Source of the DNA: Escherichia coli
GTDB lineage: Bacteria; Pseudomonadota; Gammaproteobacteria; Enterobacterales; Enterobacteriaceae
DNA length: 64,000 nucleotides
Strand: one strand, 5' to 3'
Assembly (NCBI RefSeq): GCF_030013205.1
Contig: NZ_CP122648.1
Part shown: piece by piece, positions 17,165 through 18,568 of the stretch
Layout of the letters: the number at the start of each line of letters is the position of its first letter
Numbering within the stretch: the stretch's first letter is position 1
The notes under the pieces: model-generated
What the model saw: only the letters and a program-made list of their open reading frames with translations
What the model was told of the DNA's origin: nothing
Database searches by the model: none
Position numbers and translations under genes: made by a program

Positions 17165-18568
17165 ATGAATACAGTACGCAGCGAAAAAGATTCGATGGGG
17201 GCGATTGATGTCCCGGCAGATAAGCTGTGGGGCGCACAAACTCAACGCTCGCTGGAGCATTTCCGCATTTCGACGGAGAAAATGCCCACCTCACTGATTC
17301 ATGCGCTGGCGCTAACCAAGCGCGCAGCGGCAAAAGTTAATGAAGATTTAGGCTTGTTGTCTGAAGAGAAAGCGAGCGCCATTCGTCAGGCGGCGGATGA
17401 AGTACTGGCAGGACAGCATAACGATGAATTCCCGCTGGCTATCTGGCAGACCGGCTCCGGCACGCAAAGTAATATGAACATGAACGAAGTGCTGGCTAAC
17501 CGGGCCAGTGAATTACTTGGCGGCGTGCGCGGGATGGAGCGTAAAGTTCATCCTAACGACGACGTGAACAAAAGCCAAAGTTCCAATGATGTCTTTCCGA
17601 CGGCGATGCACGTTGCGGCGCTGCTGGCGCTGCGCAAGCAACTCATTCCGCAGCTTAAATCCCTGACACAGACGCTGAGTGAAAAATCGCGCGCATTTGC
17701 CGATATCGTCAAAATCGGTCGAACCCACTTGCAGGATGCCACGCCGCTAACACTAGGGCAGGAGATTTCCGGCTGGGTAGCGATGCTGGAGCATAATCTC
17801 AAACATATCGAATACAGCCTGCCGCATGTAGCGGAACTGGCTATGGGCGGTACAGCGGTGGGTACTGGACTAAATACCCATCCGGAGTATGCGCGTCGCG
17901 TGGCAGATGAACTGGCAGTCATTACCTGTGCACCGTTTGTTACCGCGCCGAACAAATTTGAAGCGCTGGCGACCTGTGATGCCCTGGTTCAGGCGCACGG
18001 CGCGTTGAAAGGGTTGGCTGCGTCACTGATGAAAATTGCCAATGATGTCCGCTGGCTGGCCTCAGGCCCGCGCTGCGGAATTGGTGAAATCTCAATCCCG
18101 GAAAATGAGCCGGGCAGCTCAATCATGCCGGGGAAAGTGAACCCAACACAGTGTGAGGCATTAACCATGCTCTGCTGTCAGGTGATGGGGAACGACGTGG
18201 CGATCAACATGGGGGGCGCTTCCGGTAACTTTGAACTGAACGTCTTCCGTCCAATGGTGATCCACAATTTCCTGCAATCGGTGCGCTTGCTGGCAGATGG
18301 CATGGAAAGTTTTAACAAACACTGCGCAGTGGGTATTGAACCGAATCGTGAGCGAATCAATCAATTACTCAATGAATCGCTGATGCTGGTGACTGCGCTT
18401 AACACCCACATTGGTTATGACAAAGCCGCCGAGATCGCCAAAAAAGCGCATAAAGAAGGGCTGACCTTAAAAGCTGCGGCCCTTGCGCTGGGGTATCTTA
18501 GCGAAGCCGAGTTTGACAGCTGGGTACGGCCAGAACAGATGGTCGGCAGTATGAAAGCAGGGCGTTAA
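17165..18568 (+). CDS. fumC: class II fumarate hydratase
   Basis: 467-aa ORF with [11 protein letters not shown] signature; recognised as FumC. Confidence 0.97.

Follow-up and report, generated by a model that had tools for sequence, protein, structure and literature searches.

The fumC and tus genes of Escherichia coli, which converge, end within a single TTAA tetranucleotide. The overlap is real and ordinary, an already known and long-annotated tail-to-tail junction, and in itself it matters little. Compactness alone slightly undersells the junction, for the signals that define the 3' ends appear to have moved into the partner gene: no spacer is left between the two coding sequences, and the 3' end of each transcript must therefore be formed inside the other gene. 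The explanation that best covers all of the data, and that we consider likely to be right as a whole, combines an ordinary TTAA junction, termination of fumC transcripts by Rho inside tus, a fumC hairpin embedded in tus codons, and the collapse of an ancestral intergenic spacer. The modest value of the case is as a worked example of what becomes of 3'-end signals after convergent genes lose their spacer.

The fumC/tus junction in E. coli

The DNA analysed was a 64,000-nt stretch of an E. coli genome (the window; coordinates refer to it unless MG1655 is named). The fumC coding sequence lies at 17165..18568 on the plus strand and encodes a class II fumarate hydratase of 467 amino acids that ends in MVGSMKAGR, with the TAA stop at 18566-18568. 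The tus coding sequence lies at 18565..19494 on the minus strand and encodes the DNA replication terminus site-binding protein, 309 amino acids long and ending in PRLHLYVAD; its TAA stop is the complement of 18565-18567. Direct reading of the plus strand gives gca ggg cgT TAA tct gca acg around the junction, with TTAA at 18565-18568. Since TAA preceded by T is a stop on both strands, fumC and tus can end within one TTAA; their coding sequences overlap by 4 nt, two of which (18566-18567) are common to both stop codons. The list of open reading frames, RefSeq annotation and family models agree on both genes. FumC matches the NCBIfam equivalog model TIGR00979 (fumC_II) end-to-end with 843.8 bits (cut-off 664.75), and Tus matches the equivalog model TIGR02648 (rep_term_tus) end-to-end with 545.6 bits (cut-off 178.3). 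A mis-called stop for either gene is ruled out by this coverage and by thousands of annotated genomes. The stop positions and the 4-nt overlap on opposite strands given in a preliminary description of this DNA are thus correct, and both stops were unchanged when they were re-inspected, a different position for either being what that description had named as the observation that would speak against it. The pair shows the three features of a 4-nt convergent stop-stop overlap: the genes are real and full-length, both stops lie in one tetramer, and the arrangement recurs in orthologous pairs.

The junction region is 100% identical to that of E. coli CFSAN018748, where the RefSeq coordinates match (fumC 17165-18568 and tus 18565-19494 in window numbering), and 5423 of the 5426 complete E. 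coli genomes contain it with at least 95% identity. RefSeq gives the same 4-nt overlap in CFSAN018748, in a K-12 derivative and in MG1655, and it is also annotated in the two most divergent E. coli sampled (96.0-96.4% identity over the junction region). In MG1655, tus (b1610) occupies 1684259..1685188 on the plus strand and fumC (b1611) 1685185..1686588 on the minus strand; gene order, gene lengths and the 4-nt overlap are identical to those of the window. Over the junction region, the window and K-12 are 97.3% identical and differ by strain-level substitutions only, for example GCAGGGCGTTAA in the window against GCCGGGCGTTAA in K-12, and G against T at position 7 of TerB.

The surrounding gene order is the standard one, manA / fumA / fumC / tus / rstB / rstA / ydgC / folM. 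A pattern search placed the replication-terminus site TerB, AATAAGGATGTTGTAACTAAAGT, at 19505..19527 on the minus strand, 10 nt upstream of the tus ATG. The match has one mismatch to the K-12 TerB core, with 0.02 matches expected by chance. The tus locus is known to be autoregulated through Tus-TerB, and tus sits on the permissive side of this TerB site. The tus reading frame in the list of open reading frames (18565..19506, 313 amino acids) begins with a GTG inside TerB; the GTG at 19506 is an upstream extension of the gene, whose annotated start is the ATG at 19494.

Tight junctions are common in the window. Its first 50 kb contain nine convergent pairs according to RefSeq annotation. One of these, ydgC/folM, has a second 4-nt TTAA overlap at 22055-22058; another pair overlaps by 48 nt, ynfC and speG are separated by 2 nt, and the remaining five gaps measure 24-48 nt. 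Convergent 4-nt overlaps formed through CTAA, TTAA, CTAG or TTAG are a described class, in which two opposite-strand stops share one tetramer, and they represent the modal short convergent overlap (Lillo and Krakauer 2007, PMC2174442). The same study counted 58 convergent overlaps in E. coli and pointed out that terminators must then lie in the coding sequence of the partner. There is no essential difference between this class and fumC/tus, the added detail here being a fluctuation among 0, 4, 11 and 14 nt within one bacterial family. A search of the literature other than the original 1986-1991 sequence papers returned nothing specific on a fumC terminator or on the tus/fumC overlap. Synonymous constraint on the embedded hairpin was likewise not found described in the literature searched, and it is a small, unsurprising refinement.

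Junction states in Enterobacteriaceae and spacers in distant relatives

Conservation of the overlap across Enterobacteriaceae was checked by searching with a Tus alignment through a single genome of each GTDB species, which yielded 80 Enterobacteriaceae loci with Tus identities of 68-97%. Both stops were located at each locus by tblastn and frame extension, and 81 junctions were scored, comprising species representatives, the window and two E. coli controls. Among 79 species representatives, the overlap was 4 nt in 42, 0 in 16-17, 11 nt in 16 and 14 nt in one, and gaps of 10-35 nt were present in three. When all 81 scored junctions are considered, the 4-nt overlap, written as TTAA, CTAA or CTAG, accounts for 45 (Escherichia, Citrobacter, Salmonella, Kosakonia, Phytobacter, Pseudocitrobacter, Kluyvera and others). 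The stops abut, as TAATCA or TAGTCA, in 16 (Enterobacter, Lelliottia and others), and they overlap by 11 nt in another 16 (Klebsiella, Raoultella, Yokenella, Trabulsiella and others). The 14-nt overlap was seen once, in Superficieibacter. A 10-nt gap was scored in two junctions ('Escherichia sp.' ESNIH1 and the Enterobacteriaceae MAG UBA7338) and a 35-nt gap in one, that of Pluralibacter gergoviae. One Leclercia locus carries a frameshift in fumC, the normal stop of which would abut that of tus, and in Klebsiella indica no fumC adjoins tus.

The 4-nt state is present in all Escherichia, Citrobacter and Salmonella representatives ('Escherichia sp.' ESNIH1 being scored with its 10-nt gap), and the TTAA tetramer is the same in K-12 and in four other Escherichia species representatives. 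The last one to five residues of both proteins vary with the register: FumC continues after MVGS with MKAGR, MRPGS, LK or MATR, and Tus continues after LHLYVA with D, E, G, ND or SE. In about 95% of the 79 species representatives, the tails are in contact, overlapping by 0 to 14 nt. We conclude that tail-to-tail contact is a stable trait of Enterobacteriaceae, while its exact register drifts, 4 nt being the commonest of several states. Together with the near-universal presence of the junction in E. coli, this bears out the earlier suggestion of a compact ancestral arrangement.

More distant Tus proteins were collected by a HMMER search of the whole library, the contigs were then inspected, and three outgroup loci (L083, L085 and L087) were seen. 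At a locus whose Tus is 47% identical, and whose 90% cluster includes a Moellerella protein, the order is tus, fumC, manA, with fumC facing tus, manA oriented as tus, and a 74-nt spacer between the convergent genes. A locus with a 44%-identical Tus has the same convergent tus and fumC order and a 142-nt spacer. For a 57%-identical Tus (P0122), the contigs stop 29 nt after tus, before any fumC could show. In all three relatives, a canonical hairpin-plus-U terminator, for example AAGCCAUCUCAUUUAAGAUGGCUUUUUUU and AAAAGCCAGGUCUGCAGACCUGGCUUUUUUU, lies just beyond the tus stop, with folding energies of -15 to -19 kcal/mol and z-scores of about -4.5 to -5.4; in two of the three, it sits in the 74-142 nt spacer before fumC. 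These elements, each made of an A-tract, a GC hairpin and a U-tract past the tus stop, are of the bidirectional intrinsic kind known from between convergent genes. In contrast, the window has neither a spacer nor such an element, and the hairpin embedded in its tus gene combines a loop of 18 nt with weak tracts of U and A. No fumC was found near a 37%-identical Tus (P0145), and one further case (P0147) was left out because its contigs were too short.

Since distant relatives combine convergent tus and fumC with a spacer and a terminator, the adjacency of the two genes is older than the compaction and older than Enterobacteriaceae. Judging from the three loci sampled, the compaction looks derived relative to the spacer-plus-terminator arrangement of distant Enterobacterales. 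For the genomes sampled, the comparison shows the collapse in Enterobacteriaceae of what would have been an ancestral spacer, with the stops drifting since then between a 35-nt gap and a 14-nt overlap.

A hairpin within the last codons of tus

The preliminary description had also held that the junction leaves no room for separate terminators, and there is indeed neither a spacer nor a canonical intrinsic terminator at this place. A consensus promoter and terminator scan of both strands over 17000-20000 found no terminator-like site at the fumC/tus junction; it did report sites elsewhere, one between fumA and fumC and two within rstB. What follows fumC is a stem-loop in the fumC-sense RNA, lying inside tus at 18578..18623 (plus strand), which starts 10 nt after the fumC stop and has a 14-bp stem and an 18-nt loop. 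The core of the hairpin is a 12-bp helix, 18580-18591 with 18610-18621, in which tus codons R302-L303-H304-L305 are paired with Q292-A293-Q294-P295. Its predicted stability is -27.4 kcal/mol in the window (z -4.7, with none of 200 shuffles as stable) and -25.6 kcal/mol in K-12 (z -5.2). On its 3' side, there is only GGUUUAUAA, and the 9 nt after the helix contain three or four U in 75 of 81 sequences. An Rfam search (E-value mode) of 17000-20000 returned nothing real, only a sub-threshold match to a trypanosomatid snoRNA over the hairpin (20.6 bits against a gathering threshold of 40, E 0.29).

Of the helix cells in 81 distinct Enterobacteriaceae sequences, 90.7% are paired, and five pairs have changed on both sides. 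For all five summary measures of the helix, 0-1 of 500 column shuffles reached the observed value and all slid controls were exceeded, in tests that ignore phylogenetic relatedness and use a structure derived from the window sequence. RNAalifold, working from the alignment alone, calls the inner 7 bp of the helix. In 80 species, mean normalised synonymous entropy is 0.32 for the eight arm codons, against 0.73 for tus as a whole, and the 8-codon windows of lowest entropy in the entire gene fall at 288-305. The alignments show a hairpin that appears to be kept by selection on synonymous sites across Enterobacteriaceae, as judged by statistics that ignore kinship.

The hairpin could instead be a by-product of neutral compaction, the overlap having arisen by drift of stop codons and the hairpin being a chance outcome of the Tus peptide QAQP...RLHL and of codon bias, with no function in RNA. 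Several points favour this view. Convergent 4-nt overlaps are common and well explained by a model of stop-codon mutation (PMC2174442), and the stops drift freely among species; the amino acid sequence dictates half of the positions in the helix, CTG, CAG, GCG and CCG belong to the preferred codons in any case, and no 3' end is mapped at the hairpin in the supplements of Adams et al. The synonymous sites argue the other way. The arm codons form the least variable stretch of tus, none of 100000 random sets of eight eligible codons being as low in entropy, whereas between the arms the four loop codons that could be scored show normal variation (0.68-0.95). R302 is encoded by the rare CGG (59 sequences) or CGA (15), that is, in 74 of 80 sequences, as opposed to mainly CGC or CGT at the 15 other conserved arginine codons. 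Covariation links the wobble base of R302 to the first base of codon 295, the combinations being CG in 57 sequences, UG in nine, UA in six, AU in one and GC in one, with seven unpaired. Neutral compaction as the full account thus seems to us unlikely.

The hairpin is probably a 3'-end element of the fumC mRNA. Most likely, the stem-loop formed from tus codons 292-295 and 302-305 would act as an exonuclease-resistant 3' end of this mRNA after termination by Rho. It resembles the protective 3' stem-loops of Rho-dependent transcripts (Dar and Sorek 2018, PMC6061677) in being stable, in lacking a U-rich tract, in having C-rich RNA downstream and in being followed by read-through that is sensitive to bicyclomycin. 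It differs in that its steady-state 3' end, which in this class lies directly after the stem-loop and is sensitive to PNPase/RNase II, is a predicted one, and in being built wholly from antisense codons of another gene. The predicted 3' end at the foot of the hairpin corresponds to MG1655 near 1685125-1685130 on the minus strand. Supplementary files 1 and 3 of Adams et al. (PMC7815308), from conditions under which fumC was perhaps too weakly expressed, contain no curated Term-seq 3' end in the interval 16847xx-16855xx; the protective role is a proposed one. The SMRT-Cappable-seq supplements, consulted for direct 3'-end evidence, have no entry.

Rho termination and transcription into tus

Adams et al. 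2021 (PMC7815308, Supplementary file 2) list a Rho-dependent region at MG1655 position 1684895, which is antisense to tus on the minus strand. Coverage there without bicyclomycin was 83 upstream and 16 downstream, compared with 36 and 39 in its presence (Rho score 5.62, p 5.8e-7). The data are direct RNA-seq of K-12 cells with and without bicyclomycin, scored in windows of 800 nt, which makes the position coarse. In MG1655 coordinates, the peak lies 290 nt beyond the stop of fumC, on the strand of that gene. It would map to about 18858 in the window by equal gene lengths, the measurements being from K-12 and not from the present strain. The published data show that, in K-12, fumC-sense RNA enters tus and is ended there by Rho, and that essentially all of it reads on when Rho is inhibited. 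RNA polymerase would accordingly run from fumC past TTAA into antisense tus and be stopped by Rho within roughly 300 nt. The composition of the RNA is in keeping with such a course: around the mapped peak, C exceeds G in the fumC-sense (antisense-tus) RNA over 18803..18932 on the plus strand (C/G 1.3-1.57 at +235..+364), and the ratio is 1.5 at +79..+156.

With overlapping convergent transcripts, one can ask whether the two genes form an excludon in which induction of fumC under oxidative stress or iron limitation lowers tus, or the reverse, via antisense RNA, polymerase collision or RNase III. The pair figures in a list of 165 convergent excludons that ExcludonFinder (2025, PMC12288877) derived from 58 MG1655 transcriptomes and that also contains folM-ydgC, tqsA-pntB and speG-ynfC, all from the same window. 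As in other excludons, the convergent transcripts overlap; the Rho region, which lies 290 nt inside tus, about as far as fumC-sense RNA reaches into the gene, supports this. The list, however, is a coverage-based call rather than a test of reciprocal expression, and Rho keeps antisense transcripts within the final third of tus. Cross-regulation of this kind appears improbable to us as an explanation of the junction.

The bicyclomycin data also bear on the possibility that the hairpin ends fumC transcription by itself, as a Rho-independent (intrinsic) terminator located in tus in place of the lost intergenic one. Its high stability, its location 10 nt after the fumC stop and the canonical terminators that the outgroups carry at the equivalent place would fit such a role. 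Its 18-nt loop and the paucity of U after the helix do not, nor was it flagged by the consensus scan. When Rho is inhibited, coverage downstream equals that upstream (39 versus 36), and most transcripts must therefore pass the hairpin. We regard intrinsic termination at this site as very improbable.

Equally little credence can be given to a role of the hairpin in the tus mRNA or in DNA, such as slowing of ribosomes before the Tus C-terminus, mRNA decay, or a protein-binding or cruciform site: the hairpin does lie inside tus, its tus-sense fold is still stable (-20.7 kcal/mol and z -3.5 in the window; species mean -17.8 kcal/mol), and a rare CGG codon could equally be a translational pause, but the fumC-sense fold is the stabler one in 75 of 81 sequences (mean -23.8 kcal/mol), variable G.U cells that pair in one sense only favour the fumC sense by 39 to 15, the covariation argues for pairing over codon rarity, and a helix ending 10 nt before the tus stop would be melted by every translating ribosome, while trimming of the mRNA to the helix would delete the stop. 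The asymmetry between the strands is in part imposed by amino acids, U60.G93 following from the second codon positions of His304 and Ala293.

With Rho termination inside tus and a protective fumC hairpin as the preferred reading, a more specific history can be proposed, which we hold tentatively and consider rather doubtful. After loss of the spacer and its canonical bidirectional terminator in Enterobacteriaceae, synonymous sites of tus codons 292-305 may have been recruited by selection as a replacement stem-loop for fumC which, with Rho, would confine read-through to the last third of tus. Transcription of fumC induced by stress would then leave tus unsilenced and would not reach Tus-TerB from the permissive side. 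If this were true, an RNA element embedded in coding sequence would protect a replication fork barrier from invading transcription. Transcription that invades a Tus-Ter complex from the permissive side is reported by Mohanty, Sahoo and Bastia (EMBO J 1996) to abolish fork arrest. Because of that finding, we speculate that TerB, which polymerase would meet about 940 nt further along the same path, would be shielded as well when fumC read-through is stopped within tus. Two consequences would follow from Rho termination inside tus together with a stem-loop in its synonymous sites. Read-through from fumC may be an input to the function of tus and TerB, and synonymous changes near the tus C-terminus, or deletions and replacements of tus, a common laboratory manipulation, could alter the stability of fumC mRNA.

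On the opposite strand, RNA of tus sense is C-rich and G-poor over its first 78 nt beyond the tus stop (18487..18564, minus strand), where it is antisense to the 3' end of fumC; with 30 C and 15 G, this stretch constitutes a candidate Rho-loading region for tus transcripts. The untranslated C-rich antisense-fumC RNA is probably also a substrate of Rho, a suggestion made tentatively from base composition. Between 0 and 230 nt past the tus stop, the local fold of tus-sense RNA is not better than that of shuffled sequences (z -0.44), and RNAalifold finds no consensus helix on this strand within the same 230 nt in 78 species. A hairpin-plus-U6 at about 18440-18490 (z -1.78) was considered as a tus terminator and rejected, being specific to the window and not conserved, with arm codons that vary.

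The second TTAA pair of the window, ydgC/folM, was checked for an analogous hairpin, and none stands out at its junction. For the ydgC strand, Supplementary file 2 of PMC7815308 likewise lists a Rho region, antisense to folM, and with respect to Rho this pair behaves like fumC/tus.

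Tight convergent junctions in the window

Besides fumC and tus, one further convergent gene pair in the window, ydgC (21723-22058, plus strand) and folM (22055-22777, minus strand), has both stop codons in a single TTAA (22055-22058), which is set in near-palindromic sequence, CTGCATTAACGCAG. A striking hairpin was sought past both stops, and none was found. A Rho-termination region has been mapped at MG1655 position 1681110, on the ydgC strand and antisense to folM (Adams et al., PMC7815308), and the folM-ydgC pair is on the list of convergent excludons produced with ExcludonFinder (PMC12288877). 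Two other junctions are also tight: a bioD-like gene (36534-37229, plus strand) and clcB (37182-38474, minus strand) overlap by 48 nt (37182-37229), while the convergent genes ynfC and speG are separated by a 2-nt gap (47005-47008). The first 50 kb of the window hold nine convergent pairs, and four of these are spaced by 2 nt or less, overlaps included.

Exceptions to the tus-fumC arrangement

In Pluralibacter gergoviae, tus and fumC are separated by a 35-nt spacer that contains a short palindrome (CTCGCCGGCGAG). The fumC gene of Leclercia adecarboxylata NCTC13032 carries a frameshift or premature stop approximately 20 codons early, a defect that may be a sequencing error or mark a pseudogene. 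In the case of Klebsiella indica, tus is present, and no fumC was found within 3 kb of it.

Among complete E. coli genomes, FDAARGOS_1251 (NZ_CP069445.1; junction at positions 4503-4520 of its extracted locus, L090) has lost tus together with the 3' portion of rstB. The deletion starts 13 nt past the TTAA; fumC and its stop codon are kept, and the hairpin that lies downstream of that stop in the window strain (18578-18623) is gone. FDAARGOS_1251 is a natural tus-null strain. Two more of the 5426 complete E. coli genomes searched had no match whatever to the junction region.

TerB, fumC codons, and annotation

TerB (19505-19527, minus strand), the replication-terminus site upstream of tus, has a G at position 7 in the window strain versus a T in K-12 TerB (AATAAGGATGTTG... 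and AATAAGTATGTTG..., respectively). G at this position occurs in other K-12 Ter sites as well, TerC and TerG for example, so it is probably a tolerated variant.

Within fumC, synonymous variability is lowest at codons 42-49 (17288-17311; 0.42 versus a gene mean of 0.69), and in 72 of 77 species Gly432 (18458-18460) has GGG, a non-preferred codon. A search for conserved tus-sense structure involving G432 revealed none.

In a strain identical to the window, RefSeq lists uidC (11083-12348) and ynfE (43257-45683) as pseudogenes with internal stops. The class I fumarase gene upstream of fumC (15376-17022) is called "fumB" by the NCBI pipeline in the window strain as well as a K-12 derivative. Its position makes it fumA, matching the MG1655 record, and the inconsistency is one of naming only.
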